From: Arenicellales bacterium
Lineage (GTDB): Bacteria; Pseudomonadota; Gammaproteobacteria; Arenicellales; JAJDZL01
DNA length: 64,000 bases
NCBI GenBank assembly: GCA_965213865.1
Contig: OZ243928.1
Span: 2,106,828-2,170,827, forward strand
Direction: 5' to 3'
Both the position numbers and the translations under genes were made by a program. Numbering within the stretch: the first letter of the stretch is position 1; every line of letters begins with the position of its first letter. Of this stretch, positions 3,486-46,214 are shown in pieces. The notes below the pieces were generated by a model. The model did no database searches, was not told where the DNA came from, and saw only the letters and a list, made by a program, of their open reading frames with translations.

Positions 3486-3487
3486 GG

Positions 3488-7215: not shown

Positions 7216-7322
7216 TTCAGAGTAAAATTTCAAAAGAAAAAAAACCTGCTAGAACATTTATGGCTGTTCAGGTCAGTGTCCGTGGCTGGCAGCAGCCGCA
7301 ATTCGATGTGAATTGCCCTTGA

Positions 7323-7955: not shown

Positions 7956-7992
7956 AGACTTTTTCCGATCTAAACGCAGAAGGCTGCAAGAC

Positions 7993-26892: not shown

Positions 26893-26981
26893 GGAGAGGT
26901 GGCCGAGTGGTTGAAGGCGTTCCCCTGCTAAGGGAATATGGGCAACCCCCATCGAGGGTTCGAATCCCTCCCTCTCCGCCA
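26893..26981 (+). tRNA. tRNA-Ser (anticodon GCT)
   Basis: GGAGAGGTGGCCGAGTGGTTGAAGGC ... CTGCTAA anticodon loop ... long variable arm ... GGTTCGAATCCCTCCCTCTCCGCCA. Confidence 0.9.
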
Positions 26982-27035: not shown

Positions 27036-27112
27036 GCGCCTGTAGCTCAGCTGGATAGAGTACTAGACTACGAATCTAGGGGTCGGGGGTTCGAATCCCT
27101 CCAGGCGCGCCA
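27036..27112 (+). tRNA. tRNA-Arg (anticodon ACG)
   Basis: GCGCCTGTAGCTCAGCTGGATAGAGT ... ACTACGAAT anticodon loop ... GGTTCGAATCCCTCCAGGCGCGCCA. Confidence 0.9.
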
Positions 27113-27963: not shown

Positions 27964-29981
27964 ATAGGACATCCCGGTCGCGGCCGCCAAGGAAAAAAAC
28001 GGCTGCGGCAACAAAGTCGGGAGTCATCGATTTTGTCAGCCATGCGAAAACCCGTGTTCGCACAAGAAGCGGCGAGATGTTTTTGCTATCTGAAGATGCC
28101 CGTCAATTCAGTCTCTTGCCAGGTGACAATATTGAGTTTGAGCTGCGCTCCCGTGCGCGAAGATCACACCGTTCAGCAGACAAGCAAGCGCATGTTGTCG
28201 GTGTGGAACGTGCTCCTGAGCATATTGCCGTGGTCCAGATCATCCGTTCTGTCCGACGCTCCTCAAATGCAGTTGAGCTGTTGCCAGTCGGGCTGCCGGG
28301 GGTTGGCAGTATCCAGATTTCATCGAAACCTTTGCCGCCCGATTGGCATGCGAAATATGCATTTGTAAAGATTTCGCTCGCGCCAGTAAATCGGACTAAA
28401 GCCATTGTGTGGCATTTGGTTGAGATCATCTCTGCATTGGATGCCCCCGCAGAAGTTGCGAATGCTGTGGCGCTGTCGCGTTACGGACTGAGCAATGACT
28501 GGCCAGCAGCCGTTTTGGAGGAAGTGAAGCGCATTTCACCAAAGATTCAGCAGGATGCCCTGACGAAAAGACAGGATTTTCGAAATATTCCGTTTGTCAC
28601 GATTGATCCGCCTGGCGCTCAAGATCATGATGACGCAATCTACTGTGAGACAGTCTCTGCGGATGTCTATCGATTGGTCGTGGCGATCGCGGACGTCAGC
28701 GACTATGTTGCAGCATCCTCAAAGATCAATGACGAGGCCCATCGGCGCAGCACATCAATCTATCTGCAGGACACTTCGCTTCCGATGCTGCCAGCAAGAC
28801 TGTCTGGCGATCTATGCTCGCTGCGCCCAGGCCTTGATCGTCTGGCTTTGTCGTGCGATATGAAAATCAACTCGAGCGGTGATATCGTTTCCTTTGAATT
28901 TGCGGCCGCTGTCATCCGGTCCCGATTGCGGCTGAGCTACGATGAGGTCAGTCCTGAGAAGACTGAAAAGTACGCTGCGGATATTCAATCGAGCTTGCGC
29001 AGTCTATTTGACTTGCATCAATGCCTGGCCGCCAATCGCAGAAACCGAAATGTCCTTGATCTTGAAATCCCTCAGCCCGTGCTGCATTTCAATGCCAATG
29101 CAGAGATAGCGGCCATTGATTGTTCGAAACGGCAAATATCACATAGCCTGGTTGAAGAGGCGATGCTGGCAGCGAATGTCTGTGCGGCCCGTTTTATCAG
29201 CAAAAACTATCCGCAAGAAGCCATGTATCGGGTGCACGATGCACCGACGAGCCGCAGCGCCGAGGATTTTGGAGCGCTGGTCAGCGGGCTTGGGTTGAGC
29301 GTGAATCAGCAAAATGACTTCACTCTAGGCGACTATGCTCACATTCTTGATCAAATTCATGATAACAGCGATTTAGCTGCTGCGGTTCATATTCACTTGC
29401 TCAGAAGCTTGTCCACGGCGGTCTATTCACCTCAAAGAGCGCCTCATTTCGCACTCAATTACCCTCTATACACGCACTTTACCTCGCCCATTCGGCGTTA
29501 TCCAGACTTGATTGTTCATCGCATGATCAAAAATCTGCTGAGGAAAAATGATCGCTACCATCCAGCCGCTGCGCTGAGCACGATTGCCGCTGACGCATCA
29601 TATCGTGAAAGACGTGCCGAAGCTTGCGCCCGAGAGGCAGAAAAGTGGCTTGTCACCGGCTATATGAAGAACTTCATCGGCCAAGTGTTTGCGGGTGTCG
29701 TGGTCGATGTGAAGCGTTTTGGGCTATTTGTACAGCTGGATGCCCCTTATGTGGACGGTTTGGTCGCTATTGAGGGATTGGGCAGTGAATACTTTGGGTA
29801 CGATGATTCCAAAAGACAGCTGCTGGGTGAGAAATCCGGACGAACTTACCGTATTGGCATGCGTGTTGAAGTTTGGCTGACTGGAGTCGATCAGGAGCTC
29901 GGGCATATTGATTTTGAACTGACCGATGTGCCGCAGGCTAGTGGCAGTCGCCGCCGCAGAAAACGCAGAAGAAAAAGATGA
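27960..29981 (+). CDS. rnr: ribonuclease R (RNB family 3'-5' exoribonuclease)
   Basis: Has the RNB motif FVTIDPPGAQDHDDAIY, HFALNYPLYTHFTSPIRRYPDLIVHR, a C-terminal S1 domain and an RRRRKRRRK tail. Followed by rlmB. Confidence 0.85.
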   Translation: MNRTSRSRPPRKKTAAATKSGVIDFVSHAKTRVRTRSGEMFLLSEDARQFSLLPGDNIEFELRSRARRSHRSADKQAHVVGVERAPEHIAVVQIIRSVRRSSNAVELLPVGLPGVGSIQISSKPLPPDWHAKYAFVKISLAPVNRTKAIVWHLVEIISALDAPAEVANAVALSRYGLSNDWPAAVLEEVKRISPKIQQDALTKRQDFRNIPFVTIDPPGAQDHDDAIYCETVSADVYRLVVAIADVSDYVAASSKINDEAHRRSTSIYLQDTSLPMLPARLSGDLCSLRPGLDRLALSCDMKINSSGDIVSFEFAAAVIRSRLRLSYDEVSPEKTEKYAADIQSSLRSLFDLHQCLAANRRNRNVLDLEIPQPVLHFNANAEIAAIDCSKRQISHSLVEEAMLAANVCAARFISKNYPQEAMYRVHDAPTSRSAEDFGALVSGLGLSVNQQNDFTLGDYAHILDQIHDNSDLAAAVHIHLLRSLSTAVYSPQRAPHFALNYPLYTHFTSPIRRYPDLIVHRMIKNLLRKNDRYHPAAALSTIAADASYRERRAEACAREAEKWLVTGYMKNFIGQVFAGVVVDVKRFGLFVQLDAPYVDGLVAIEGLGSEYFGYDDSKRQLLGEKSGRTYRIGMRVEVWLTGVDQELGHIDFELTDVPQASGSRRRRKRRRKR

Positions 29982-30730
29982 ATCAGGTATTTGGGATTCA
30001 CGCAGTGCGAACGGTATTGTGTCAACATTCCTCGAATGTGAAAACTGTATTGCTGAGCGAGAATCGGAAGGATGGCCGATTGATGGAGCTTGAGCAATTG
30101 GCGCAGGGTCGCGGTATCGCTGTACAGAAAGTCGCTGTCAGACAGCTGAATGAGCTCGCTTGCGGATTGCGCCACCAAGGGGCGGTTGCGATGTGTCATG
30201 CAGTCGCGCGGGCCGATGAAAAAATCAAGATTGCCGAGTGGTGTGAGGCGTTAGGTGAAAGTCCATTGATTGTGGCGCTGGATTCTATTCAGGATCCCCG
30301 TAACTTGGGCGCTTGTATCCGAAGCGCGAATTGTGCAGGTGCGGCGGTCGTGATTCCCAAGCGAAAAGGAGCGCCGATAACTGAAACCGTATCAAGAACT
30401 GCGGCAGGTGCGGTCGAGTCAACACCTATTTACGAGTCGACCAACCTGGCCCGAGATCTCGATTTGCTGAAGCAAAAAGGATTTTGGGTGATTGGCCTGG
30501 ATGCGAAAGCGCGGCAATCGGTCTACGCGACCGATTTGCAGGATGCATGTGTGCTGGTGTTCGGCAGCGAAGATCAAGGCTTGCGCCGCCAGACAGCTGT
30601 CAAGTGCGACGTACTTGTGCAGGTGCCGCTCGCAGGCTGTATTGAAAGTTTGAACGTATCCGTGGCAGTCGGTGTTGTCGCCTTTGAAGCGCGGCGCCAG
30701 CGCCAGGCCGCGACTGCATCAAGCGAGTGA
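29978..30730 (+). CDS. rlmB: 23S rRNA (guanosine-2'-O-)-methyltransferase RlmB (SpoU/TrmH family)
   Basis: Contains LDSIQDPRNLGACIRSA, LVFGSEDQGL and ESLNVSVA. Its start overlaps the rnr stop by 4 nt. Confidence 0.85.
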   Translation: MNQVFGIHAVRTVLCQHSSNVKTVLLSENRKDGRLMELEQLAQGRGIAVQKVAVRQLNELACGLRHQGAVAMCHAVARADEKIKIAEWCEALGESPLIVALDSIQDPRNLGACIRSANCAGAAVVIPKRKGAPITETVSRTAAGAVESTPIYESTNLARDLDLLKQKGFWVIGLDAKARQSVYATDLQDACVLVFGSEDQGLRRQTAVKCDVLVQVPLAGCIESLNVSVAVGVVAFEARRQRQAATASSE

Positions 30731-31741
30731 GCCAGTACAGCTGCTGCCGCTTCCCGCCGTGCAGCCAAAGCAGTGAGAGCCGACTGCGATGACTTCATCA
30801 AGGATATTGTCCATTTCAACATCCCAAAGGAATCGTGGCTGCCTCCAGCCCGCATGCATCCCCAGCATCTGATTGAAGTCGCAATCAAAGATTCTGCCAA
30901 GCCAATCAACACTGATGATGTGCCGGCACATCAGTCCGTCAATGGTCGCCGGATTAAAATTATCGCTTAGCAAATCAAGATAAGTGTCATATTGGCTGTT
31001 GCTTCTCAGATAGTGGCTGAAGCGGCTGATCGGCAGGTTGGTCAGGGTGAACAGCTGGTTGAACTGGATTTGAAAATCTTCACTCAAGCGGCGCTTGTAG
31101 GCTGCCTCAAGCTCGCTTTGAGCGGGTGGAAGAAATGCGCCATTCGGGTTGTAAACAAGATCCAGCGTCAGTTCGGGGTCGATTCCATAGCCGTTCTGAT
31201 TGAGCTGCTGCAGACCTCGAATGCTCAGTTCGAATACACCTTTGCCGCGCTGCGCTTCCAGATTTTCTTTGGTATAGCAAGGCAGCGAGCAAATGAGCTT
31301 GACGCGATTGGCCGCGTACCACGAGGCAAGGTCGTCTTGATCGGGCTCAAACAGCACTGTCAGGTTGCAGCGTGAGATCACTTCAGCCCCGGTCGATCGC
31401 AATGATTCAACAAAATCTCGGAAACCAGGCACCATTTCGGGTGCGCCGCCGGTAATGTCGATCGTTTTGATTTCGTTTTTCAATACCCATTGAATGATAT
31501 TGAACATGGTTTCTCGGGACATAATCTCAGTTCTTTTCGGTCCCGCGTCCACATGGCAGTGATTGCAGGCCTGGTTGCAAAGCTTGCCGACATTGATCTG
31601 CAGATCTCTGATTTGCTCCCGTCGCAGCTGATTGACACCGCTTCTGCGCAAAGCGGCAGTGAAATTATGTTTGGTGTTATGGGTCTCGCGGATGCCGTTT
31701 GAGGCGGCATCCGCGATGACAACAGCAGCCAGATCGCTCAT
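30719..31741 (-). CDS. radical SAM / Cys-rich C-terminal domain protein, ArsS-like (arsenosugar-biosynthesis rSAM family)
   Basis: Has the CNQACNHCH (Cx3Cx2C) cluster motif, ITGGAPE, LTNLPISRF and a C-terminal HCFGCTAGSGSSCTG. Co-directional with the doxX gene and 24 bp downstream of it. Confidence 0.7.
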   Translation of the reverse strand: MSDLAAVVIADAASNGIRETHNTKHNFTAALRRSGVNQLRREQIRDLQINVGKLCNQACNHCHVDAGPKRTEIMSRETMFNIIQWVLKNEIKTIDITGGAPEMVPGFRDFVESLRSTGAEVISRCNLTVLFEPDQDDLASWYAANRVKLICSLPCYTKENLEAQRGKGVFELSIRGLQQLNQNGYGIDPELTLDLVYNPNGAFLPPAQSELEAAYKRRLSEDFQIQFNQLFTLTNLPISRFSHYLRSNSQYDTYLDLLSDNFNPATIDGLMCRHIISVDWLGRIFDCDFNQMLGMHAGWRQPRFLWDVEMDNILDEVIAVGSHCFGCTAGSGSSCTGSLA

Positions 31742-31765
31742 CCTTCACTCCATGTGACGGGTAAT

Positions 31766-32248
31766 TTATGCAAAGTATTTCTTGCGAACAAAGTAATCAA
31801 TCGATATGCGGCCGGGTCCTCTTAAGGCCAGTACCAGCAGCATCAGGCCCCAAAGCTGGTGCTGCTCGACCCCCGCGGCATTGAGAGTCGGATAGGAAAT
31901 GACCGCCATGGCATTGAAAAGGAAAAGGGCGCCGGCTGATATTCTGCCTGCGAGCCCGAAAGCCAGGAGCACAGGCAGTACTAATTCTGCGCCGATGGCC
32001 ATGTAGGCTGCGACCTGATACGGCAAGATGGGCACAGCATATTCATACTGAAACAAAAACAGTGTCGTGTCAACATTCGCAATTTTCGTGAGTCCAGCTT
32101 TCCAGAAGATGTTCGCAACCCAGAGGCGCAGCAGCAAATCGCCGACCGGCGCGGCACAATCCAAATAGCACACTGCTTTGTGCCATAACTTTCCAATAGT
32201 TGAATCTTTTAACATTTTTATCCTGCCTGGCAAATAAAGATAAATCAT
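31766..32248 (-). CDS. DoxX family membrane protein (fourth gene of the bufferin-type operon)
   Basis: Four TM helices with RLWVANIFWKAGLTK. The ATG overlaps the upstream stop (ATGA). Confidence 0.75.
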   Translation of the reverse strand: MIYLYLPGRIKMLKDSTIGKLWHKAVCYLDCAAPVGDLLLRLWVANIFWKAGLTKIANVDTTLFLFQYEYAVPILPYQVAAYMAIGAELVLPVLLAFGLAGRISAGALFLFNAMAVISYPTLNAAGVEQHQLWGLMLLVLALRGPGRISIDYFVRKKYFA

Positions 32249-33030
32249 ATCGATGACGAACCGATCGATATACCTGCTATTGTACGAAGTGAGAAGAGTC
32301 GATGCAGTCCTAACTGCAAATCATAATGTGGATCGTTTTCCAAAAGCTGTGTGACCGCATCGCCTAGAACGGTTCCATTGACGAGCAGACGGGCGAATTC
32401 ATACAGAGTCTTCTCCATGCGAAACACGTTGGTTTCATCATGCTGGCGCAACACCATCACGCATTGCGGCGCAGACTCCGGATCCGGTGCGGGATGCTCG
32501 CTATCCGGCTGTTTTGCAAATCGCCAGATATCGAATACAGGATAGCGTGATTGCAGCAAGCGCACTGAGGGATGCAGCTGCAGCCTCAGATCTGCATGCT
32601 GCTCCGGGGCAAATGAACCGAGTTGCGAGATGTCGCAGGGATCGGCTGAGTCCGAATGAAAAGCCTCGTGTGTGAACCAGTCTACCTTTGAGACATCTGC
32701 AAGGTATGGCAGACTGCTCAGCTGTGGAAATGACGAGATGAACTCTGGCAGGCAGGCGCCCACATCCAGAATATTGCCGCTTTCGGGCGGATGCGTCTCA
32801 AGATAGCGCTTGGCCAAATGCTTGAAAAAATCACCGCCGACAAGTGCGTATGTGGCCGGATAAATGTCTTGCAGGGCTTCGCGCAGGGTGAATCTGATGT
32901 TATTGCGATACACTTGCAGTCTGCGGGCGGGCTCAAGGCCTCTGCCAACGACATCGGAAGCAATGGCGGAGCTGATATTTTCGCGCAGCACAGCACTTGC
33001 GAACTGGCGCTGCAATTCATGCAACTGCAT
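32245..33030 (-). CDS. DUF2063 family protein (BufC-like partner of the MNIO enzyme)
   Basis: 261 aa containing LQRQFASAVL..RRLQVYRNNIR..L..IYPATYALVGGDFF. Overlaps the DUF692 gene by 14 nt. Confidence 0.7.
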   Translation of the reverse strand: MQLHELQRQFASAVLRENISSAIASDVVGRGLEPARRLQVYRNNIRFTLREALQDIYPATYALVGGDFFKHLAKRYLETHPPESGNILDVGACLPEFISSFPQLSSLPYLADVSKVDWFTHEAFHSDSADPCDISQLGSFAPEQHADLRLQLHPSVRLLQSRYPVFDIWRFAKQPDSEHPAPDPESAPQCVMVLRQHDETNVFRMEKTLYEFARLLVNGTVLGDAVTQLLENDPHYDLQLGLHRLFSLRTIAGISIGSSSI

Positions 33031-33871
33031 TGCTTTTGATACCGGTTAGATAACTGCGTGCAATGGCGGCTTCGTCAAGCAAAACAGAGAATTCAGGCAA
33101 ATCTTTATCCCACTCAATCAGTGTGGGTGCCGCAATGCGCTGGCCTATCGCATATTCATACAAATCCCACACTTGATTACATACCCGCTGGTCATGGGTA
33201 TCAATCCGAATCTCGCCTTCTGGAAACTGTTTCAGGGTGTGACCTGCCAAGTGGATCTCGCCTACTGCCTGTGCATTGACGCGATCAATAAACGCGGTTG
33301 CCGAGAATTGATGATTGCTGGCGTTCACGAAGATATTATTGATGTCGAGCAGCAATCCACATCCGCTTCTCGCACAAACCTCATTCACGAATTCCCATTC
33401 CGGCATCTGCGAATGGGAAAATTCAAGGTAGGTCGAAGCATTTTCGACAAGAATCTGGCACCCTAGATAGTCTTGGGTCTCAATGATGCGCGCACTGAGG
33501 TGCTGAATCGCTTCCTCAGTCATCGGCAGCGGCAGCAGATCATGCAGGAAAACGCCGTCAACTGAGCTCCAGGACAGGTGCTCTGAAACCAATGCAGGCT
33601 GATATTGCTCAATCAGCTGTCTCAAGCGGCGCAGGTGATTGCGATCAAGCGGGTCGGCTGAGCCGAGCGAGAGTCCAACTCCGTGGAAACTTAAAGGATA
33701 GTTTTTGCGGATCTGTGTCAGGTGGCTATGAGGTGTTCCGCCGAGTCCGAAATAGTTTTCGCTGTGAACTTCATACCAGTCGACGGGGTGTCGTTTTGAA
33801 ACAGCTTCCTGGCAGTGCTCGCCACGCAGCCCGATTCCAATCGCGTCTGATGGAATCGGGCCGGTGGACAT
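33017..33871 (-). CDS. DUF692 / multinuclear non-heme iron oxidase (MNIO, MbnB/BufB-like)
   Basis: Contains IGIGLRGEH..WYEVHSENYF..SFHGVGLSLGS..VSEHLSW..VENAS..LLLDINN..EIHLAGH. Confidence 0.85.
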   Translation of the reverse strand: MSTGPIPSDAIGIGLRGEHCQEAVSKRHPVDWYEVHSENYFGLGGTPHSHLTQIRKNYPLSFHGVGLSLGSADPLDRNHLRRLRQLIEQYQPALVSEHLSWSSVDGVFLHDLLPLPMTEEAIQHLSARIIETQDYLGCQILVENASTYLEFSHSQMPEWEFVNEVCARSGCGLLLDINNIFVNASNHQFSATAFIDRVNAQAVGEIHLAGHTLKQFPEGEIRIDTHDQRVCNQVWDLYEYAIGQRIAAPTLIEWDKDLPEFSVLLDEAAIARSYLTGIKSNAVA

Positions 33872-33893
33872 TACTTCATGCGTAAGGGATCAA

Positions 33894-34154
33894 TTACGAC
33901 ATTTTTTCGGTGCTTCCACCAACTAATTTGTCGCACAGTCCTTTCGGGACCAATACCCAGGCATCCCCCTGATTGTCGGCTGTTGACGTGCCTGCACAAG
34001 AACTGTTGGCGGTCTGGCAGTCGTTGTGGCCGGCTTTGGCTACACCGTAGCATTTTTCCATTTCTTCAGCGCTGGCAGTGGTTGCGATGGACAGAGTGCC
34101 AAGGGCAAGTGCGCCAGAAATAGCAGCAGAAACAAGAGCTTTTTGAGTTTTCAT
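33894..34154 (-). CDS. DUF2282 / BufA1-type signal-peptide-bearing RiPP precursor (bufferin family)
   Basis: 86 aa. A Sec signal peptide (..TTASA) is followed by EKCYGVAKAGHNDCQTANSSCAGTS..WVLVPKGLCDKLVGG with four conserved Cys. Confidence 0.8.
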   Translation of the reverse strand: MKTQKALVSAAISGALALGTLSIATTASAEEMEKCYGVAKAGHNDCQTANSSCAGTSTADNQGDAWVLVPKGLCDKLVGGSTEKMS

Positions 34155-34316
34155 TTGGAATCTCTCCTAAAATTTATAAAAATAATTCCCCGTCTTTGAC
34201 AGAGCGATAGTTGATTTGTTTGCTGGAAAGCGATTTTATTTCGTTGCTTGTTTTCCTCCAGCTGAGAAGGAATTATAGATTGTTGTATTGGCGGCAATCG
34301 GCAAAATGCCGGTCCC

Positions 34317-34520
34317 AAATCGGCACGTTCAATGCTGAGGGCGAAGACGGGGCGCCGAATGCGTCGATTCGACCTGCCCGGCCGCACCGGATTCCGTTCC
34401 GGCCGCGCCTTCAGCGTCGCATTTTCCACCAAACCTGCAGATGCGACGCGGTCGCGCTGCTTCTCGCCTCCGGCCAGCAGCGCCACCCAGCGCTGCAGGG
34501 CGAATTTTTGTTCGGCCTAT
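34317..34520 (+). repeat. copy R2 of a recombinase-5'-end repeat family (R1 at 20609, R3 at 43798 on the - strand)
   Basis: All three copies start at the same nucleotide string ccaaatcggcacgttcaatgc(t/c)gagggcga..., while the sequence outside that point is unrelated. Confidence 0.75.
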
Positions 34521-34599
34521 GAGTATGAAATGAAATCAATATCAGCGGATTCTGGACTTTTGCCGCTGCTTTGCGCATATTGCCGCCATCGATGATCAA

Positions 34600-35744
34600 G
34601 CTGGACGGTGACGGATGAATCTGTCAGAGCTGGCCATTGTGCCGGTCGCCCGCGATGAAGAGGCTGAATTCCGGTCTCTGATGCGGCGGCATCACTGCCT
34701 CGGGGCACCCTGCAAGATCGGCGAGAGCGCGTTCTATGCCGCGGTCTGGCGGGGCGAGCGGCCGCCCTGAAAAGCGCGACCCGTGACCGCCAGCCAAGGC
34801 TGCACCTGATCACCAGCCAGAGCCGGTTCCTGGCTCTTCGGCGGATGGCGAATCTGGCCTCGCGGCCGGCGCGGGCGGCGCTGCCGCCTGGAGACGCTGC
34901 TGGCCATCGCGGCGGCCACGCTGTGCGGCGCCAAAGGGTATCTGGAGATCAACCGAATGGATCGAGGCGCAGTCCGACCGGGTGCCGCGAAAGTATTTCA
35001 AGGCCGGCCTGCGCCGCGGCCGGGTCCAGCGCCCGAGCACGTACTGCATCCGCAATGCGCTGATCCACACGGACACCCGGCAGATCGATGCCGCGCTGCG
35101 GCGGTGGAGCCGGTCGGCTGACGGCGGCGAGGCGATTGCCATTGACGACAAGACGATGCGAAAGGCGATGGATGACAACGGCCGCCAGATTCATGTGCTC
35201 GGCGTCTGCGGGCATGACACGCGCATGCATCTGGGTAAAAAAAGATGCAGCTCGACCCGGGCGCCGCCAATCAGGTTAAATACACCAATGAGATCGCCTC
35301 AATGGCCATGTCCGATTCCCTCATGTCGGGTTGGCGTTCGCGGTGAAAAGACAGGTTCATCACTTAAACGGCAAAAAGCCCGACACCGTTGAGATTGCCT
35401 TTGGCGCGACCTCTGTACATAACAGTTCAGCAACCGCTGAGGAAATACTCTCGACAAACCGAAACCACTGGTCAGTTGAAGCGGCTCACAACGTATTGAA
35501 CAATCGAAATGGATTCGATGAGGATGCGTGCAAGGCTCGAAGCGACAATGGGCCTGAAAACTTAGCCTGCATGAGACGCTTTGCGCTGACTGTGTCTAGA
35601 CATTGTCAGAAGATCAATGACAGGCCGATCGCCGAACAGCTGCAGCATCTGAGTATGAATCCCAGGCGAGTGATGGATATCTTGAGACTCACGGGCAATA
35701 CCAAACCGAAGTTATGCCAGCGCGAATGGCTGCTTGCAGCTTGA
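34600..35744 (+). mobile_element. degraded transposase gene: DUF4338-like N-terminal part plus ISAs1-family DDE part (multiple frameshifts)
   Basis: ELAIVPVARDEEAEFRSLMRRHHCLG (DUF4338-like), then AIAIDDKTMRKAMDDNGRQIHVLG, then NRNHWSVEAAHNVLNNRNGFDEDACKARSDNGPENLACMRRFAL (ISAs1 DDE C-terminus). These lie in different frames. Confidence 0.6.
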
Positions 35745-36015
35745 CAAGGCAAACCAATAGCTCTTCGATTCCATGCTGCCTTGAGTGCGGCAGGTGTCAG
35801 CACGTGCTGAGTTTGAAATAGACGATGAAACGAATAGAAAAATCCGCTTGGCGGCATAAAAATGACAGCTCAGTGAAACGCAATTCGAGGATCAATCCGC
35901 CTTGTCAAAAAAACACCCTCAAACTGGGGCACCTTACTCCGTCCAAAAAAAGAATAAATTCACCTTGATTTTTATTATAATCCAAAAATTATAATCTGAC
36001 TTTAAGGATAAAACT

Positions 36016-36606
36016 ATGAAACAATCCCAGAATCCCCCCCCCCTCGCTAGACTGGCAGCCCTTCTATTGCTTCTAGCAATGGCAATCCCGGCGGGGGCTC
36101 AGACGACGATCCGGGAGGGGAATGATATACTAGTAAATATGGAAATTCAGAATAATAAAATGGGAACTGAGGCGCGAGTTGCCGCCGCACTCGCGGCAAG
36201 AAACAGCATCCCTGTAGGTTGTGGCGTGGCAGGGAGTGACGCTTGCTTCACTATTGAGAGAGTCTGGCCATCTGCCGCATACATTCGGATAACAGCCGTC
36301 GCGGACGATTGTAGAAACGGTACTGCAGCGAGACAGGTGACAGTCGACAGCACAACCTATCAACATCAGGATGATGATTGGTATCCGAGGTATACATGCG
36401 CAAATCCACAAGTTATGACCAAGTATAACCAAGACTATAGACATGGATATAGAGATACTTGCAGGGCGCATGAAATATCTAGTGGTCAAGAGTGCTTAGC
36501 CAAGTGTCTTGATACACAGATTTGGCGTGAAGCAGGTTGGATCCCACTAGGCGGAACCGAAATAAGCAGGGTGGGAGCTAATGGTGCCTGCGAAACTTGG
36601 AAGTAA
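36016..36606 (+). CDS. phase-variable-leader secreted Cys-rich protein, family member C (in frame, C10 tract)
   Basis: MKQSQN + C10 (36034-36043) reads through as PPPLARLAALLLLLAMAIPAGA/QTT. The mature part is ~170 aa with 8 Cys. A TATAAT-like element lies ~35 nt upstream, and a hairpin follows the stop. Confidence 0.6.
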   Translation: MKQSQNPPPLARLAALLLLLAMAIPAGAQTTIREGNDILVNMEIQNNKMGTEARVAAALAARNSIPVGCGVAGSDACFTIERVWPSAAYIRITAVADDCRNGTAARQVTVDSTTYQHQDDDWYPRYTCANPQVMTKYNQDYRHGYRDTCRAHEISSGQECLAKCLDTQIWREAGWIPLGGTEISRVGANGACETWK

Positions 36607-38103
36607 AGGTCACTGGACAAATACTCCATAGAGATACACCGATCTTAAACAAGACAACGGGGCGGCTTTGGCCCCCCTTGTGTCTTGGATTTTGCTTATC
36701 ATTTTTTCCCTTGCGTCAATTGTAAAATCACTCCATTCCGGGCGAGATTTATCTGGAAATTCCGCTCGCTGTTCCGATGTGGGTGAGCGCTTAGAGCCGC
36801 AATTCTCTCCGAGCTTGATGGACGCGTGATAGCCGTATATATCTTATTTGGAGGGAGTGTCAAATTCAGAAGGAGTCATTCATCCTTGAATATGTGAGCG
36901 GTTCTTAAAAATGGCAAACCAATCTTGTCATACATCTGGGCGATGAAGATGCCTTTATTGAAGATAAGTGTGTGGCCTAGGTACCACCCTTCAGCAGCAT
37001 GCTCCAATAGGTGAGGGTATTGCTGGTAGAGGGCGCAAAAACCTGAATTTTGAGACGAAATCCCCGTTACCGGGATCTAGACATCATCGGCAAGCGCAAG
37101 CACAGCGAGGACGCTCTTTGACTGCGCCTGCACAGCTTGCTAGTAGCGGCTGAAAAGACATCCCGATCGGCCTGGCGGTTGCTAGCGTTGGAAATAATGG
37201 GACGAGAAATCCTGGAACTGCCTTCGGAAGTCCTGATTTCAAACTCGAAATCGTAGTACTGGATCATCTTGATCAGGCCTGCTCCAAACTCCGCCCAACA
37301 GCCTGGATAGCGTCACGCTGACCATAGCCATGTTTTAAGGATACATAGAACGTAAATAGTGTCTGTCAAAAAACTCTATTTCCTTATCAAAATAATTGTT
37401 TTTGTCAATAATATTTCAATACCGATTTTCCGAAGATTCAGCTTTGAACACCGTTTAGAATTGATTTCGACAGCATCTTGCGTCTGAAAGCCTCGTTTCC
37501 GAAAATCTTCGTTTTCAGATCTGGTTTTCAACCCATTGTTATAATTGATTTATGTCGCTATATATGACTTTTCTGCCAGACACTAAATATCACATCTCTC
37601 CCAGATACAAATTTCATCTGGATCAGGTATTACATACAAAGCAGAAGTCTACGGACTAATTGAAGGAATCAATCTTGGCAGCGCCAAATGACTGGCACCA
37701 AAATGGTTTCATGCCGATTTATGTTTAGACAAGAATTGTGGCTAATAGGCAGGATATGCCTCACTTAAATTTACTGAATAATGTCTTTAAACCACCGATC
37801 AGCCGCAAAATGGAGATTTCTGACAGACACTAGATTGAATAGAATGGGTGAATCAGCAATGGAGAAAATCGATGAAACAGCTGGCGCTAGGCAATATGAA
37901 GGTATGGCTGGACGAGCAGAATCTCATGTGCTCGATGGCAATGCTCGAAGCGCTGAAACAAGGTGCCTATATCGACGAAAACGCATGGCTATTTTTCCCG
38001 CTTGACACGATCAGGTTGCATTTAGATTCTTTTATCAGCCCACAGCTGATTTCGAAGAATATTTTTTCTGTCGTAAAAGCAGTGATGCATGCAAGTCGCT
38101 GCA

Positions 38104-38556
38104 TCAGGTGCGATGAGGGGCGCTGTCTGGCTGCACATCCAAGGCCAGCCGCATACTGCTGAGCAGTTTCTCGCCGTCAATTTGCTTGAGGTCGAAAACT
38201 TCTTCTTGAACCAGCCAGTCAAAGATGATCGTCATCATTCTGTGCTGGGCTTCGTGCTTGTCGCCGGCTTTCACAACGAGTTGATCATAAAGCCGCCGCA
38301 CGCCAGGAGGCTGATCGGAACTGATCATTTCGATCAGGATTGAGTGGAAGGCCAGATGCATGAATGCCTCAGTATCAATGTCTGTCAGGTTCGCCGAGGA
38401 ACTCAAGGTCGCCTCAATCAATTCGTGAACTTGAGGGTGCATTTCAATGATCTTGCGTATCTGGGTTTCCAGCGAGTCAAGTTTTTCTCCGCGGAGATGC
38501 TTTTCCCATGCGGAAAAGAAAATTTCGTAATCGACAATGGATGAGGTATCTTTCAC
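38104..38556 (-). CDS. DUF1841-like protein
   Basis: Contains FFSAWEKHLRGEKLDSLE..MHPQVHELIE..FMHLAFHSILIEMISSDQPPGVRRLYDQL..GDKHEAQHRMM. GTG at 38556 with GGAG 8 nt upstream is preferred over the 38631 start, which overlaps nth. Confidence 0.5.
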   Translation of the reverse strand: MKDTSSIVDYEIFFSAWEKHLRGEKLDSLETQIRKIIEMHPQVHELIEATLSSSANLTDIDTEAFMHLAFHSILIEMISSDQPPGVRRLYDQLVVKAGDKHEAQHRMMTIIFDWLVQEEVFDLKQIDGEKLLSSMRLALDVQPDSAPHRT

Positions 38557-38587
38557 TTTTGCAGCTCCAGTTCGCTGTACTGCAAAA

Positions 38588-39262
38588 TCAGCGGCTAGGC
38601 TGCGCAGTTTTTGGGGCGCTGTCCGCTGCAATTTTCAATTTGTCAGGAAACTCGCATAAGTCAGATATCAAGCACGAATGACACAAGGGTTTGCGCGCGG
38701 TACAGGTGTAGCGTCCATGCAGAATCAGCCAGTGATGCGCGTCGACCAAAAACTCTTCGGGCACAGTCTTCAGCAGTTTGCGCTCAACTTCGTCAACATT
38801 TTTGCCGGGTGCCAGTCGGATGCGATTGCAGATTCTGAAGATATGCGTATCGACCGCGATGGTCGGCTGGCCAAAAGCGGTATTCAAGATAACGTTCGCT
38901 GTCTTTCTCCCAACACCGGGCAAAGCCATCAGCGCGTCGCGACTGTCCGGCACCTGGCCGTCATGCTTGCGCACAATCATTTCACTCAGGTTGATGATGT
39001 TTCTGGCTTTATTGTTGAAAAGACCTATCGTCTTCACCAGCTCTCGGACCTGCTCAAAACCAAGATCAAGCATTGACAGCGCATCTGGCGCGGCGCGGAA
39101 CAGGCGCCCAGTTGCAGCGTTGACCGCTTTATCGGTTGACTGCGCGGAGAGGACGACGGCAATCAGCAGCTGGAAATGGCTGCCATATCGAAGCTCGGTT
39201 GTCGGGTTCGGATTGGCTCCGCGCAGACGCGCAAATATCTGATATCGTTTCTGCGCGTTCAT
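38588..39262 (-). CDS. nth: endonuclease III
   Basis: Contains LIAVVLSAQSTDKAVN, the HhH-GPD motif LPGVGRKTANVIL, and the C-terminal 4Fe-4S motif CTARKPLCHSCLISDLC. Confidence 0.93.
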   Translation of the reverse strand: MNAQKRYQIFARLRGANPNPTTELRYGSHFQLLIAVVLSAQSTDKAVNAATGRLFRAAPDALSMLDLGFEQVRELVKTIGLFNNKARNIINLSEMIVRKHDGQVPDSRDALMALPGVGRKTANVILNTAFGQPTIAVDTHIFRICNRIRLAPGKNVDEVERKLLKTVPEEFLVDAHHWLILHGRYTCTARKPLCHSCLISDLCEFPDKLKIAADSAPKTAQPSR

Positions 39263-39939
39263 CCGCTCAGCCGTTTCAGTGGAGTATGGATTTCGCGCTT
39301 GCGCCTGTTTTTCCAGCGCTTTTGCCGCTCACGATTCACAGCGTCCCGAATCTGCTGCTGGATGCCCGAGGCGCTGAGGTCTGCAGTACTGCCGTTTTCT
39401 GCGGACAGCTGGCTTTGGCGGCGCTGTCGGCGTTTGTACGCAAGCTGACGCCAATGATTTGTCTCGCACGTTTCGTAGTGCGACCACCTGTCGCCAGCGA
39501 TTTGCGGCTGGCAGGGGAGCATCGAAATACAGTCGACCGGACAGTCATCAACACACAGTCCGCAGCCGGTGCAGTTGATTGCGATGACGCTATGCATATG
39601 CTTGGCGCTCCCCACAATCGCATCGGTCGGACACGGTGCAATGCAAAGTGTGCAGCCGATGCATTGAGCCTCGTCGATTTTGGCGATTGCTCTCCCTGTG
39701 AATGGCGCGCAGTCATCGGCCGCCGCGAGCGGCTCAACGCTGAAAATCTGCGCCAGTGCATGGATCGTTGCTGTGCCGCCTGGAGGGCAGCGATTAATGT
39801 CCGCCGCCCGATGCTCAAGCGCGTCTGCGTAGGCAATGCAGCTTGGGTAGCCGCATTGTGTGCATTGCGTCTGCGGCAAATACTGGTCAAGGGTGTATTT
39901 GTCAGCTCGCACTGCTGTTGATTTGGCGCTGCCAGTCAA
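39259..39939 (-). CDS. RnfB-related soluble ferredoxin (Fe-S cluster domain plus 2x[4Fe-4S]) with a basic C-terminal tail
   Basis: Contains CTQCGYPSCIAYADAL..INRCPPGG, then CIGCTLCIAPCPTDAI and CTGCGLCVDDCPVDCI. It has no N-terminal membrane anchor. Confidence 0.7.
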   Translation of the reverse strand: MTGSAKSTAVRADKYTLDQYLPQTQCTQCGYPSCIAYADALEHRAADINRCPPGGTATIHALAQIFSVEPLAAADDCAPFTGRAIAKIDEAQCIGCTLCIAPCPTDAIVGSAKHMHSVIAINCTGCGLCVDDCPVDCISMLPCQPQIAGDRWSHYETCETNHWRQLAYKRRQRRQSQLSAENGSTADLSASGIQQQIRDAVNRERQKRWKNRRKREIHTPLKRLSG

Positions 39940-39949
39940 TTTCGTCTTG

Positions 39950-41971
39950 CTAGCTGACTTTTGTTCCAGGTAAAGCGTCGCTGCCCGGGTCTAGCAGCCA
40001 AAGCCCAGCGTCGCCGCCTGCGGCCAGTACCATGCCCTCAGAGGTTCCGAATTTCATCTGGCGCGGCGTCAGGTTGGCAACGATCACAACATTTCTGCCG
40101 ACCAGTGATTCGAGCTCATAAAACCCTTTGATCCCAGCAATGATCTGGCGAGTGTCGTTTCCAAGGTCAACTTTAAGCCGAATCAGTTTGTTTGAACCCT
40201 CGATAGGACTGGCCTCAATGATGCGGGCGGTGCGCAAATCGATCTTGGCAAAATCATCGATCGATATAGTTTCGCTGCGCGGCGCAGATTCGGCCTGTGA
40301 CCGCTCTTTTTCGACGGAAGCGGCAACCATTGCCGCCACATCTTTTGGCTGCACTCTTTGCATGAGATGCTCAAACCCTGAAATTTTATGGTTCAGCAAG
40401 GGCGAGTCAATTTGGACGAACCGCGTCAATGCCTCATTGAGAAACCGAGCTGCAGACGCGCTCAGATTCGGCACCGCAGGCGACAGATAAATAATGAGCA
40501 TGCGGAACATGTTGATGCCTTGCGTGCACACCGCATGCAGCTTGTCTCGGCCGTCAGCTTCCTTGGCGATCACCCAGGGTTTTTCGTCGTTGATATACTG
40601 GTTGGCGCGGTCGGCGAGCGCCATGATCTGCCGCATTGCATAGCTGAAACGGCGCTCTTCGTAAGCCTGCTCAATGGCGGTTCGGGCTTGCGCCAATTCG
40701 CAGTACAAGTCTGGAGCATCAAGGCAATCGCCGAGCTGACCGCTGAATTTTCCAGTGATGAACTTCGCGCAGCGGCTTGCGATGTTGACTACTTTGCCCA
40801 CCAGGTCGGAATTGATGCGAGCGATGAAATCCTCCAGATTCAGATCGATATCCTCAATCCTCTCATTGAGTTTTGCAGCGTAGTAATAGCGCAGGCAATC
40901 GGGATCAAGGTGCGCCAGATACGTGCTGGCCATGATGAAAGTTCCGCGTGACTTGGACATTTTCTTGCCATTGACGGTCAGGAAGCCGTGGGCAAACACA
41001 TCGGTCGGCTTGCGAAAACCTGAGCCGTGCAGCATTGCAGGCCAGAACAGGGTATGGAAATAAAGGATATCCTTGCCGATAAAGTTGTAGAGCTCGGTGG
41101 ACTGGTCGTCTTGCCAGTAGGTTTCGAAGTCAATGCCTTCGCGGTCGCACAAGTTCTTGAAGCTCGCCATATATCCAATCGGCGCGTCCAGCCACACGTA
41201 AAAGTACTTGCCTTTTTCCCCAGGGATCTCAAATCCGAAATAAGGCGCATCGCGGGATATGTCCCAGTCTGCCAGCCCGATGTCAAACCATTCCTGCAGT
41301 TTGTTCTGCGCTTCGTTTTGCGACAGCACGGTCGCAATCCATTGCTTGAGCATCGGCTCAAAGTCACCCAGCCTGACGAATAAGTGCTCCGACTCACGCA
41401 GCTGCGGCGGCTTGCCGGACAGAACCGAGACCGGATTGATCAAATCGGACGGGGCATAGGTTGCGCCGCAGCTCTCGCAGCTGTCGCCATACTGGTCTTC
41501 GGTTCCGCAGCGCGGACACTGTCCTTTGACAAAGCGATCCGGCAGGAACAGGTTCTCATCGGCATCGTACGCTTGCGAGATGACTTTGCGCACAATATGC
41601 CCGTTTTCTCTCAGCTTTTCATAAACGTGCTCGGACAGCTCGCGATTTTCCGGCGAGTGCGTGGTATGAAAGTTGTCAAAGTCAATGCTAAATCCCGCAT
41701 AGTCAAGCTCATGGTCGCGCTGGTAATTTGCGATCAGCTTTTCAGGAGCAATGCCTTCGTTGCGGGCGCACAGCATGATCGGGGTGCCATGGGCGTCATC
41801 GGCACAGACGTAGTAGCATAGATTGCCCCGCATTTTCTGTGCGCGCACCCAAATGTCGGTTTGGATTGCCTCGACCATATGCCCTAAGTGAATCGGGCCG
41901 TTGGCATATGGAAGCGCGCTGGTGACTAATATTTTTCTTGGCATTACGTTATCGGCTATCGCATCAGCCAT
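39950..41971 (-). CDS. metG: methionine--tRNA ligase
   Basis: Contains ALPYANGPIHLGH, a zinc knuckle CPRCGTEDQYGDSCESCG, KMSKS and a C-terminal tRNA-binding (EMAP-like) domain. Confidence 0.96.
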   Translation of the reverse strand: MADAIADNVMPRKILVTSALPYANGPIHLGHMVEAIQTDIWVRAQKMRGNLCYYVCADDAHGTPIMLCARNEGIAPEKLIANYQRDHELDYAGFSIDFDNFHTTHSPENRELSEHVYEKLRENGHIVRKVISQAYDADENLFLPDRFVKGQCPRCGTEDQYGDSCESCGATYAPSDLINPVSVLSGKPPQLRESEHLFVRLGDFEPMLKQWIATVLSQNEAQNKLQEWFDIGLADWDISRDAPYFGFEIPGEKGKYFYVWLDAPIGYMASFKNLCDREGIDFETYWQDDQSTELYNFIGKDILYFHTLFWPAMLHGSGFRKPTDVFAHGFLTVNGKKMSKSRGTFIMASTYLAHLDPDCLRYYYAAKLNERIEDIDLNLEDFIARINSDLVGKVVNIASRCAKFITGKFSGQLGDCLDAPDLYCELAQARTAIEQAYEERRFSYAMRQIMALADRANQYINDEKPWVIAKEADGRDKLHAVCTQGINMFRMLIIYLSPAVPNLSASAARFLNEALTRFVQIDSPLLNHKISGFEHLMQRVQPKDVAAMVAASVEKERSQAESAPRSETISIDDFAKIDLRTARIIEASPIEGSNKLIRLKVDLGNDTRQIIAGIKGFYELESLVGRNVVIVANLTPRQMKFGTSEGMVLAAGGDAGLWLLDPGSDALPGTKVS

Positions 41972-42173: not shown

Positions 42174-43148
42174 CTAGCCGTCTTGCCGGCCCGAGGCGCC
42201 ATTCATCTTTCCCTGCAGCACTTCGATCTGCTCCCGGCTGAGCTCAGTCAAGGCCGCAACTCTATCTGACTCCATACCCGCCTGCAGCAGATTTAACGCA
42301 ACTTTCTCCAGACCTTCCATACGGCCTCTCTCCAAGCCTCTCTCCAAGCCCTCCACGCGGCCTTCCTCGCGAAACGCATCTACAGCTGAAATCACCATCT
42401 CTCTATCCTCCTCGGTCGCGGTTTTAACATTCAGCACATCCTGCGGCTCAATGTCTTTATTGTACTTGCAAATGTAATCGATCACCAGCTGCAGCATGCG
42501 CCTGCGGCGTCCATGATCTACATGCCAGATGCGGCCGATCAGATCTGGCCACTCGCTGCGTTCAAAGTCGCGCACCACCGCCATCGCCCGTACCGCAATG
42601 TCAATGCCGGTTGCAGCCGCGCCGCCGGCGCGATCCAACTCATGAATATCAATCAGCACACATCTGAAATCCAGCGCATAGGCCATCAGCACCTCAAGAT
42701 GAGGCGGCGAGACGCTGCTGAACAGATCGCGGAAGCGAATCGAGGTGCGGGGATCTGCCGCATTCTGGCGCACCACGATGGGAATGACCAGCGATTGGAA
42801 GTCATCTTGGAGATACCACAGGAACTGATTGCGTGCCAATTGTTTCTCCAGCTCTCGGCTTTGGAAACTTTTGTGCTCGAACAGCAGCACCACACGGGCG
42901 GAGCCGCCGCCGCAAAGCTTTGCTGAATACACCAGGTCTGCGGTGCGGGCTGTCAGTCGGTCGACGGCAATCCGCGCCGGCTCAAGCCGCAGGGTGGACC
43001 ACTCAACAATGTCGAACAGCGCTTGCGGGCATCGGGCGCGGATCAGCATGATGATGTTCTCAGGCACCTCAAACACATCGCGGAAAAACTCATCGTGGAT
43101 GTTGGCAGCTATTTTTTCACTGGCAGATGAGACTTTTGGTTTTGGCAT
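42174..43148 (-). CDS. Rpn/YhgA-like PD-(D/E)XK recombination-promoting nuclease / putative transposase
   Basis: Contains HDEFFRDVF, ADLVYSAKL....VVLLFEHKS and a C-terminal EGRVEGLERGLERGRMEGLEKVALNLLQAGM repeat tail. Start set at MPKPKV (43148). Confidence 0.7.
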   Translation of the reverse strand: MPKPKVSSASEKIAANIHDEFFRDVFEVPENIIMLIRARCPQALFDIVEWSTLRLEPARIAVDRLTARTADLVYSAKLCGGGSARVVLLFEHKSFQSRELEKQLARNQFLWYLQDDFQSLVIPIVVRQNAADPRTSIRFRDLFSSVSPPHLEVLMAYALDFRCVLIDIHELDRAGGAAATGIDIAVRAMAVVRDFERSEWPDLIGRIWHVDHGRRRRMLQLVIDYICKYNKDIEPQDVLNVKTATEEDREMVISAVDAFREEGRVEGLERGLERGRMEGLEKVALNLLQAGMESDRVAALTELSREQIEVLQGKMNGASGRQDG

Positions 43149-43285
43149 GATTTCACCTTGTGAAACAGAGAAAAAACGGATGGAAAAAGACTGTGCCGCA
43201 ACTTGCCGCGGCACGGTGTGCGACTCAGTCAGAGGCTTTTTCTTAGTATATCACGGGACAATAATTGACTGGTCATGTCCCGCGA

Positions 43286-43540
43286 CCTTGATCGGCAGGC
43301 TGCCGCTGCACTTTGACGGGAAAGCCTTGCAATGAAATGGATGCCTCTCGGGTGACTGACGGCATCATCATGTGCCGGACTGAAATGGTTCAGTCCGACA
43401 GGAGCATCCGGATGAGGAAGATGCAAAAAATCCGCCAGGCCGGTGCGGATCGGGCCCAGAGCGTGATTCAGATCCATGCGGCTGGCCAAGCAGGTTGCAA
43501 GGTGATGAGCAGTCGGTTTTCAAGAGCCAAGGCGCTGGAG
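43286..43540 (-). repeat. IR-L, left arm of a ~250-bp inverted repeat
   Basis: Its reverse complement aligns with 45945-46214 with scattered mismatches and a 13-bp indel. It contains the perfect palindrome ccggactgaa..ttcagtccgg. It is contiguous with repeat R3 (43541-43798). Confidence 0.8.
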
Positions 43541-43798
43541 CCGATGAGTCCGCGCGCGCAGGCGATCAATGCGATGAGCTGGCGCTGTGCGGAGTCTGGT
43601 GCGGCGCCCGAGGGAGGCTGCAATGCGGGCGTACGCCTGCTGTGCGGTGAGAAGCGCGCGCCATCGCGCCGCGCCGGTCGGCTTTGTGGAAAATGCGGCG
43701 CTGAAAGCGCGGCCGGACCGCAATCCGGTGCGGCCGGGCAGGTCGAGTCAACGCATTCGGCGGCCCGCCCTCGCCCTCGGCATTGAACGTGCCGATTT
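43541..43798 (-). repeat. copy R3 of the recombinase-5'-end repeat family
   Basis: Its reverse complement begins ccaaatcggcacgttcaatgccgagggcga, as in R1 and R2. Confidence 0.75.
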
Positions 43799-43925
43799 GG
43801 GAATCCCTAAATCCGCTTTAGAGAAGCCAAAGACAAGAAAAGCCCTGCCAGTGTGATAGGCTGGAACTTAACCCCGTCTCCCCCATTGGGTGAGACATAA
43901 CCCAAGCACAGACAGGACCAGACGG

Positions 43926-45057: not shown

Positions 45058-45184
45058 AATCGACCGATTGATGCGAAAATGTCGCTCTAACGCGGACTTA
45101 GGGGGAATGCCGATAAACGAGCATGCCTGCCGGGATGTGGTATAATGCCAGGCATCACTCGCATTCCAGGAGAGGATAAAGAAA

Positions 45185-45711
45185 ATGAAACCGGCATCAG
45201 CATTCACCCCCCCCCGCTAAAATTAGCAGCGTTCCTGCTTCTGGCAGGCTTGGCGATGCCGGCCGGCCCGGCAGTGGCCGAGCAGTGCAATGCCTCCCAT
45301 ATTGAGATAACCAAAGTCTTCCCGACTACGGCATTTGTCAGCGAAAACCAGTCGCCTGGCGTGGTCCTCCGGTTCAAGCTAACGCGCTGCGACAATCTCG
45401 GCAGCAGCGGCACTCCCCGGGAATACCAGATTCCCTTCTGCGCCGAGTTCTTCGACACCACCCCGTGCGATGCCAACGCTACAGGCTGCCTGAGCAACAA
45501 TGTTGCCGGCGCTCGCGGTGTTGCAGCCGCCGACTGGCCGGTTGCCGGCGCGTTCAAGCGGTGCTCCTAAATTATTGAGACTCAGAACTTCCGAAATGCA
45601 CTCGTAGCCCCGTACAACAACGGCTTCCGGGACGACGGGGAGAATTCCCTGTACGTCATCATGCACAACCCAACCCGTCATCTGCGCATTCCCATTCGGG
45701 ACGATGACTGA
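45185..45711 (+). pseudogene. phase-variable-leader secreted protein, family member D (out of frame at C9; also an in-frame TAA at 45568)
   Basis: AGGAG precedes the ATG at 45185. MKPASAFT + C9 (45207-45215) runs into TAA. With C10 it reads PPPLKLAAFLLLAGLAMPAGPAVA/EQCNASHIEITK..CDNLGSSGTPREYQIPFC. The conserved C-terminal block APYNNGFRDDGENSLYVIMH..LRIPIRDDD* continues in the same frame after the TAA. Confidence 0.5.
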
Positions 45712-45944: not shown

Positions 45945-46214
45945 GTACCTCCAGCGCCCGGCTCTTGAAAACCGGCGGCTCATCACCTTCCTGCCTGCTT
46001 GGCCGGCCGCATGGATCTGAGTCACGCTCTGGCCCGATCCGCACCGGCCTGGCGGATTTTTTGCATCTTCCTCATCCGGATGCTCCTGATCAAGGTTTCT
46101 GCCGGACTGAACCATTTCAGTCCGGCACATGATAATGCCGTCAGTCACCCGAGGGGCAGCCATTTCATTGCAGGGCTTTCCTGCCAAAGTACAGCGGCAG
46201 CCTGCCGATCAAGG
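45945..46214 (+). repeat. IR-R, right arm of the ~250-bp inverted repeat
   Basis: See IR-L. The two arms bracket 43541-45944. Confidence 0.8.

Follow-up and report, generated by a model that had tools for sequence, protein, structure and literature searches.

An ArsS-family radical SAM gene adjoining the bufferin operon of an Arenicellales bacterium and its gammaproteobacterial relatives

[quoted passage not shown] We analysed a stretch of 64,000 nucleotides from an Arenicellales bacterium (GenBank assembly GCA_965213865.1, contig OZ243928.1, positions 2,106,828 to 2,170,827 of the forward strand, hereafter termed the window) in which such a cluster, bufA-bufB-bufC-doxX, is directly followed on the same strand by a gene encoding an enzyme of the radical S-adenosylmethionine (SAM) type and of the ArsS family (hereafter rSAM). 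This arrangement raises the question of whether the fifth gene takes part in the production of the peptide or merely travels with it. The reading that we favour, with a confidence somewhat above even, is that of a standard bufferin-1 operon on whose transcript a resident ArsS-family gene is also carried, the two being co-regulated and biochemically separate.

A five-gene block on the minus strand

The five genes were delimited by their open reading frames (ORFs) and assigned by profile searches. The first, bufA (33894-34154), encodes a bufferin-1 precursor of 86 amino acids that matches PF10048 (DUF2282/BufA1) with 87 bits. It is followed by bufB (33017-33871), encoding the MNIO (DUF692) bufferin maturase of 284 amino acids (PF05114, 357 bits; NF050167 MNIO_BufB, 385 bits against a cut-off of 310), by bufC (32245-33030), encoding the DUF2063 partner protein of 261 amino acids (PF09836, 83 bits), and by doxX (bufD; 31766-32248), encoding a DoxX-family membrane protein of 160 amino acids if the longest ORF is taken (PF07681, 56 bits). 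The product of the rSAM gene (30719-31741), 340 amino acids long, matches TIGR04167 (ArsS) with 437 bits against a cut-off of 300, PF12345 (DUF3641) with 180 bits, and also PF04055. All five genes lie on the minus strand, with spacers of 22 bp (bufA/bufB), -14 bp (bufB/bufC), -4 bp (bufC/doxX, longest ORF) and 24 bp (doxX/rSAM). The rlmB gene on the plus strand (29978-30730; TIGR00186 RlmB, 211 bits) converges on the rSAM gene, shares 12 bp with its 3' end and forms the 3' boundary of the operon. Judged by these profile scores, bufA-bufB-bufC-doxX is a genuine cluster of the bufferin-1 type.

The motifs expected of both systems could be located. BufA carries four conserved cysteines in the contexts EKCYG, NDCQ, SSCAG and GLCDK, behind an N-terminus predicted by eye to be a Sec-type signal sequence (lysine-rich n-region, hydrophobic core, ASA|EE end). 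In the rSAM protein, the motif CNQACNHCH occupies residues 55-63 and supplies the CxxxCxxC cysteines C55, C59 and C62, while the DUF3641 C-terminal domain holds cysteines C272, C287, C324, C327 and C335, the last three within the cysteine-rich tail HCFGCTAGSGSSCTG (residues 323-337). Selenocysteine is absent from this protein, whose C-terminal motif has cysteine in its place. The initial annotation of the window had described the five genes with their positions and spacings, the bufferin families of the first four, the ArsS-like fifth gene with its two cysteine motifs, the signal peptide and cysteines of BufA and the overlap with rlmB, and all of these features were borne out. It had also described an ATGA overlap between bufC and doxX, which would be valid for the longest doxX ORF only: the doxX start is ambiguous, homologues being 149 amino acids long and beginning at the equivalent of Met12 (window position 32215), and this homologue-backed start leaves a gap of 29 nt after bufC, the same as in a 91%-identical relative (L164; L numbers designate the loci that we compared).

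The doxX-rSAM junction (31742-31765, minus strand) consists of 24 nt, attacccgtcacatGGAGtgaagg, and includes a ribosome-binding site, GGAG. A pattern scan with crude sigma-70 and intrinsic-terminator consensus sequences gave no promoter-like or terminator-like match in this junction, no terminator-like site in any gap among the five genes and no promoter-like match on the minus strand within doxX. Upstream of bufA, alignment with L164, the closest relative, delimits a candidate operon promoter and leader (34155-34345, minus strand), with a perfect TATAAT at 34272-34277 in a region conserved in L164. A terminator-like hairpin at 34188-34204 is weak. The presence of a regulatory RNA upstream of bufA was considered and rejected, since the fold of the leader was not significant when compared to shuffled sequences (z = -1.26) and Rfam yielded only two tRNAs in the window. 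The five genes thus share one strand, short or negative spacers, gaps free of terminator-like sites and an arrangement kept in 15 loci (see below) and, as far as spacing allows one to judge, bufABCD and rSAM are almost certainly co-transcribed.

Recurrence of the block and its chromosomal slot

The recurrence of this arrangement was investigated by scanning an alignment of rSAM homologues against one genome per GTDB species and the window rSAM protein against JGI metagenomes, which yielded 80 loci each; all 160 loci were then searched by tblastn and with hidden Markov models built from the window Buf proteins. The JGI scan returned mostly distant relatives (≤60% identity) and only 3 of its 80 loci were buf-linked. 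The complete bufABCD-rSAM block was found in L001, L002, L003 and L011, which belong to Arenicellales and unclassified gammaproteobacterial metagenome-assembled genomes (MAGs), and in L082 and L083/L084. The same five genes were present in the Pfam-annotated neighbourhoods of eight further homologues (L161, L163, L164, L165, L166, L167, L172 and L173), which brings the number of distinct five-gene loci, including the window, to 15, with rSAM identities to that of the window ranging from 54 to 91%. The doxX-rSAM gap varies between -14 and about +70 bp across related loci, the two genes overlapping by 1 bp in L161 and by 14 bp in L166. Downstream flanks vary too: most loci have rlmB-rnr, in the same convergent arrangement as in the window in L003, L011, L161, L164-L167 and L173, and other genes follow in L001, L002, L082, L083, L163 (flavin reductase) and L172 (dnaK/grpE). 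A further 19 contigs, seven of them no longer than 25 kb, appear in both the top-120 rSAM and the top-120 BufB lists and would add to this count, equal contig size having been taken as a proxy for the same contig. One contig (27469), listed for BufB and DoxX but not for rSAM, looked like an exception and was rejected as such, inspection having revealed an rSAM gene there. The adjacency noticed in the initial annotation is therefore recurrent, in 15 inspected loci and probably in these 19 contigs. In the unbootstrapped neighbour-joining tree of rSAM sequences, the window falls together with about 45 sequence clusters into a core clade in which 11 of the 11 inspected loci are buf-linked; its sister clade is a mixture of buf-linked, doxX-only and unlinked loci.

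The surroundings of the block are conserved as well. On the minus strand of the window, metG (39950-41971), an rnfB-like ferredoxin gene (39259-39939), nth (38588-39262) and a DUF1841 gene (38104-38631), all identified by ORF and Pfam match, are followed by an insertion of about 3.8 kb and then by bufABCD-rSAM. The same series, metG-rnfB-nth-(FIST)-DUF1841, precedes rSAM in relatives whether or not these have buf genes, and what stands between the two differs from lineage to lineage. The full form FIST-(DUF1841)-bufABCD-rSAM occurs in L082, L083 and L172. In L007-L010, L014 and L168, FIST is followed by rSAM and there are no buf genes. Three species (L004, 5113-7186; L005, 8720-10948; L006, 963-2643) have FIST-DUF1841-doxX-rSAM, lacking bufABC, with convergent TIGR04282/TIGR04283 genes beyond. 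In L169 (4020-5969), the slot holds genes for an extracytoplasmic function (ECF) sigma factor and for a small anti-sigma factor of the zinc-finger (HxxxCxxC) type, whose true start lies near 4699, directly upstream of rSAM, with DUF2064/GT2 genes downstream, which suggests that rSAM is under stress-responsive control in that lineage. These comparisons go part of the way to showing that the rSAM gene is the vertically inherited anchor of a metG-rnfB-nth-(FIST)-DUF1841-[slot]-rSAM locus, and that this locus would belong to a gammaproteobacterial clade comprising Arenicellales and neighbouring groups; the direction of evolutionary events at the slot is one that we infer. Where the slot holds bufABCD, as it does in many lineages, the tight doxX-rSAM spacing would place rSAM under the buf promoter.

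Roles considered for the radical SAM enzyme and DoxX

If the rSAM protein had become a bufferin enzyme, traces of this specialization might be visible in its sequence or in that of its putative substrate. The window rSAM is unchanged at all 80 positions that reach a conservation of at least 95% among 142 members of the family outside the gammaproteobacterial clade. Five differences are consistent and lineage-specific (D123S, F141W, L142Y, A151C and V161L); four of the five are common to the sister clade, which includes loci without buf genes, and the alignment comparison revealed no substitution confined to buf-linked loci. Likewise, aligning BufA of 13 rSAM-linked operons with the precursor of L171, where a canonical bufABCD operon lacks rSAM and encodes a DoxX 59% identical to that of the window, gave no distinguishing residue. 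Profiles of RiPP recognition elements (RREs) and SPASM domains had no match beyond the rSAM core, and matches to profiles of RiPP radical SAM maturases span residues ~40-190 only and are far below their cut-offs. The sole sequence match in the PDB, SkfB, is not a close one (E = 1.6e-4) and is likewise limited to the core. An AlphaFold2 model (mean predicted local distance difference test score 78.5) has a generic twitch/SPASM-like radical SAM fold, for which Foldseek retrieved the peptide enzymes SkfB, SuiB and anSME together with the small-molecule enzymes BlsE, DesII and BtrN, all with template modelling (TM) scores of about 0.5, a result that favours neither a peptide nor a small-molecule substrate. 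Co-occurrence of rSAM with a precursor gene is not obligate, as orthologues are found at loci that encode no precursor. To form the two thiooxazoles in Caulobacter, BufB1 and BufC1 are both needed and together suffice, whereas DoxX can be dispensed with (PMC11626156). At the level of sequence, then, we see no sign of an rSAM specialized for bufferin. The initial annotation had proposed an extra step that would be either tailoring or related to metals or metalloids; the occurrence of rSAM in the same slot without buf genes and the lack of distinctive residues argue against tailoring, and a metal or metalloid role fits better.

ArsS attaches a 5'-deoxyadenosyl group to an organoarsenical (bioRxiv 10.64898/2026.04.29.721666). 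In a neighbour census of 79 genome loci based on crude longest-ORF gene calls, genes of the families TIGR04282/3 (25 loci), arsM (19), pyridine-nucleotide disulfide oxidoreductase (11), TIGR04169 (8) and MTAP (4) occurred within four genes of the ArsS-family gene. In L004-L006 and L169, rSAM is followed by genes of the TIGR04282/TIGR04283 'arsenosugar biosynthesis glycosyltransferases' or by DUF2064/GT2 genes. Many ArsS-family loci (L012-L160) have only TIGR04282/3 or the disulfide oxidoreductase nearby, and the equivalog-level name 'arsenosugar' perhaps reaches further than the evidence. One locus joins the two systems: in L074, from an Opitutales MAG (1696-8981), a single strand carries arsM, then a gene of the thioredoxin/HEAT-like kind and ArsS; next come the genes for a BufA2-like lipoprotein precursor (5323-5622; NF050166, 47 bits, below cut-off), for an MNIO and for a DUF2063 protein, followed by an unknown gene and MTAP. 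By its gene families this is a bufferin-like cluster set within one of the arsenosugar type. The locus is a hint that ArsS and bufferins may be associated repeatedly, perhaps functionally. It is also a single case, about ten other Verrucomicrobiota loci being devoid of such co-localization, and is compatible with genes for metal and metalloid stress simply clustering.

The three species that have doxX-rSAM without bufABC (L004-L006) bear on the role of DoxX. Their doxX genes are intact, lie 8-53 bp from rSAM and are under purifying selection (dN/dS 0.13-0.20), and their DoxX proteins group with those of the buf-linked L082 and L083, in a neighbour-joining tree that mirrors the one obtained with rSAM. 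Read most simply, a bufABCD-rSAM ancestor lost bufABC and retained doxX. This retention shows DoxX to be of use in the absence of the peptide and permits a partnership of DoxX with rSAM. The opposite course, insertion of bufABC upstream of a pre-existing doxX-rSAM pair, was considered less parsimonious, because doxX is canonically the fourth gene of a bufferin cluster and close relatives of its product are ordinary BufD proteins, a judgement made on unbootstrapped neighbour-joining trees that are unable to decide firmly between loss and insertion.

Three accounts compete with the one that we favour. DoxX, a membrane redox protein, and rSAM may form a functional pair, DoxX supplying or withdrawing electrons or handling a thiol or metalloid intermediate. 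The doxX gene would then belong to rSAM at least as much as to bufferin, and the pair could also connect the bufferin system to the rSAM product. The persistence of doxX-rSAM in three species without bufABC, the selection acting on their DoxX and its parallel tree all speak for such a pair, as do the overlaps of the two genes in L161 and L166; moreover, bufferin maturation and function in Caulobacter need no DoxX, which leaves room for another role. However, L004-L006 form one clade and hence represent a single evolutionary event, no other ArsS-family locus among the 160 has a DoxX neighbour, and sister lineages retain rSAM without doxX. In addition, the 59%-identical DoxX of L171 serves as an ordinary BufD where the operon has no rSAM, and another DoxX, 60% identical, is encoded by a solitary gene. 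We consider a functional pair rather unlikely. That rSAM is instead a genuine fifth bufferin enzyme, modifying BufA before export (by 5'-deoxyadenosylation, C-S or C-C cross-linking or epimerization, for example) or making a metalloid-containing ligand of the peptide, appears to us improbable. An operon-like coupling kept in at least 15 lineages, the independent co-localization in L074 and a predicted fold resembling that of peptide maturases would agree with it. Against this, orthologues occupy the same locus without a precursor or MNIO gene, neither rSAM nor BufA has residues peculiar to the combination, no RRE or SPASM profile matches beyond the core and maturase profiles match only far below cut-off, the fold matches small-molecule enzymes equally well, and BufB with BufC suffices in Caulobacter.

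The adjacency could also be devoid of regulatory meaning, with an rSAM promoter lying inside doxX and the recurrence reflecting the general metG-nth-...-rlmB-rnr gene order of one bacterial order. Synteny extends over the entire neighbourhood, with its housekeeping genes, in most buf-linked loci, so that recurrence alone is no proof of linkage, and where no buf genes precede them the rSAM orthologues of this site are evidently expressed from signals of their own. We nevertheless consider this account unlikely: the gaps are short or replaced by overlaps, a ribosome-binding site is present and no terminator was found, the minus strand within doxX has no promoter-like match, and the block is intact where the downstream flanks differ (L001, L002, L082, L083, L163 and L172). 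In the favoured reading of two co-regulated and biochemically separate systems, BufB and BufC would act in the cytoplasm and turn BufA cysteines into 5-thiooxazoles, the modified BufA would be exported by the Sec pathway, and the mature small protein would buffer periplasmic copper, all as predicted from family membership. The rSAM enzyme would remain in the cytoplasm, cleave SAM reductively and, in the manner of arsenosugar synthesis, pass the 5'-deoxyadenosyl radical on to a small substrate with a trivalent metalloid, without acting on the peptide. The net result would be a copper-chelating peptide and a metalloid-handling enzyme on one metal(loid)-stress transcript with no shared pathway. 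Several observations weigh against this reading. The five-gene block, with its overlapping or nearly overlapping doxX and rSAM genes, has been kept across deep divergence and changing flanks, which exceeds passive synteny, and in the unrelated L074 ArsS stands directly upstream of the BufA2-like, MNIO and DUF2063 genes. By tblastn, arsM, TIGR04282/3, TIGR04169 and MTAP were absent from the 64-kb window and from about 10 kb around the buf-linked loci, so that the supply of substrate to a reaction of the arsenosugar type is unaccounted for there and the name 'ArsS' is perhaps over-extended. Furthermore, co-transcription is argued from spacing and nothing else, and the trees are neighbour-joining trees without bootstrap values. 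A real functional link between rSAM and bufferin, perhaps via DoxX, may exist. That rSAM, possibly with DoxX, is a true functional part of a bufferin subfamily, through a modification of the thiooxazole peptide, such as 5'-deoxyadenosylation or a cross-link, or through a small organometalloid or redox product that would need DoxX and bufferin to be handled, strikes us as quite unlikely; the first traces of such a part would be the co-localization in L074 and the retention of doxX-rSAM after the loss of bufABC.

Local insertion, known systems and significance

The insertion between DUF1841 and the bufA promoter region (34313-38100, ~3.8 kb) is specific to the window, only ~190-400 bp separating the two in relatives, and consists of insertion sequence remnants and an orphan gene encoding a putatively secreted, cysteine-rich protein. 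It contains frameshifted transposase-like fragments, with a weak DDE_Tnp_1 match at 35331-35744, and its GC content spikes to 0.63 at 34500-34999. Homology to the closest relative restarts ~190 bp upstream of bufA, and the TATAAT at 34272-34277 has therefore been retained despite the insertion. One arm of a 145-nt inverted repeat pair (34313-34457 and 43658-43802, 86% complementary) lies at the insertion edge beside bufA, and a second set of inverted repeats of ~240 nt (43286-43528 and 45960-46214, 89-100%) brackets a segment of 2.4-2.9 kb; both sets look like the ends of mobile elements or like repeats of the miniature inverted-repeat transposable element (MITE) type. Two plus-strand ORFs inside or beside these repeat-bounded segments (36016-36606 and 45145-45570) have cysteine-rich products whose N-termini resemble signal peptides and for which neither Pfam nor NCBIfam has a matching family. 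A putative transposase or nuclease gene of the YhgA-like type (Transposase_31, Rpn-type; 42174-43214, minus strand, 62 bits) adjoins metG. Upstream of rnr lie tRNA-Ser(GCT) (26893-26981) and tRNA-Arg(ACG) (27036-27112), both on the plus strand, the sole matches in the window at Rfam gathering scores.

Bufferin 1, in which cysteines are converted to 5-thiooxazoles, binds copper in the periplasm and protects against copper stress (PMC11626156). The buf1ABCD cluster of Caulobacter vibrioides and that of the window consist of the same four families in the same order, both encode a precursor with a Sec signal peptide and four conserved cysteines, bufB and bufC overlap in both, and the window BufB exceeds the cut-off of the NCBIfam MNIO_BufB equivalog. 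By contrast, the window adds the co-directional ArsS-family gene 24 nt past doxX, has no SigF/NrsF regulator genes nearby and carries its cluster in a fixed housekeeping locus instead of a variable region. The HvfABCX/oxazolin-type MNIO clusters of Haemophilus, Neisseria and others have the same architecture of enzyme, partner and DoxX, and their products are, like bufferins, periplasmic metallophores derived from cysteine. The window precursor is nevertheless of the DUF2282/BufA1 and not of the EGKCG-repeat type, and the window proteins score below the Hvf cut-offs (HvfB, 262 against 360; HvfC, 39 against 142; HvfX, 56 against 80). With ArsS (TIGR04167), characterized in cyanobacteria where it acts with ArsM, the window rSAM has in common the CxxxCxxC motif and the cysteine-rich DUF3641 C-terminus, whereas it adjoins a RiPP operon and not arsM, TIGR04282/3, TIGR04169 or MTAP; its activity is a predicted one, and its substrate could differ. 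It resembles SkfB, SuiB and anSME in predicted fold (TM ~0.5) and in having a cysteine-rich C-terminal extension past the core, but matches them in core sequence only and has no RRE.

In agreement with the initial annotation, which knew of no such enzyme in bufferin clusters, the five-gene layout was not described in the literature that we searched. There, DUF3641 appeared only in one metagenome survey of DUFs, and we found no paper linking MNIO/DUF692 with arsenic or DoxX with TIGR04167. A study of the MNIO landscape accepted unrelated genes only within 10 bp of a core gene and reported further conserved genes to be extremely rare (PMC12452194); under that rule the 24-bp doxX-rSAM junction is missed, and the supplements of the study have no Radical_SAM, DUF3641 or ArsS entry. 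The component families are thus known, the conserved five-gene arrangement is probably new with respect to the searched literature, and new chemistry is improbable. A five-gene version of the bufferin operon is conserved across a clade of marine and sediment, uncultured Gammaproteobacteria and was apparently overlooked, the neighbourhood rules of published work having demanded no more than 10 bp between genes.

The label 'ArsS/arsenosugar' should be used with caution, having been given to many genes without arsM nearby. The persistence of DoxX beside rSAM after the loss of bufABC amounts to a natural experiment on DoxX. If the link between rSAM and bufferin is only regulatory, the locus is a modest example of copper and metalloid functions carried on one transcript. 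If rSAM were instead a functional part of the system, the enigmatic DoxX would gain a role, and the chemistry of copper RiPPs would be connected with that of metalloids.

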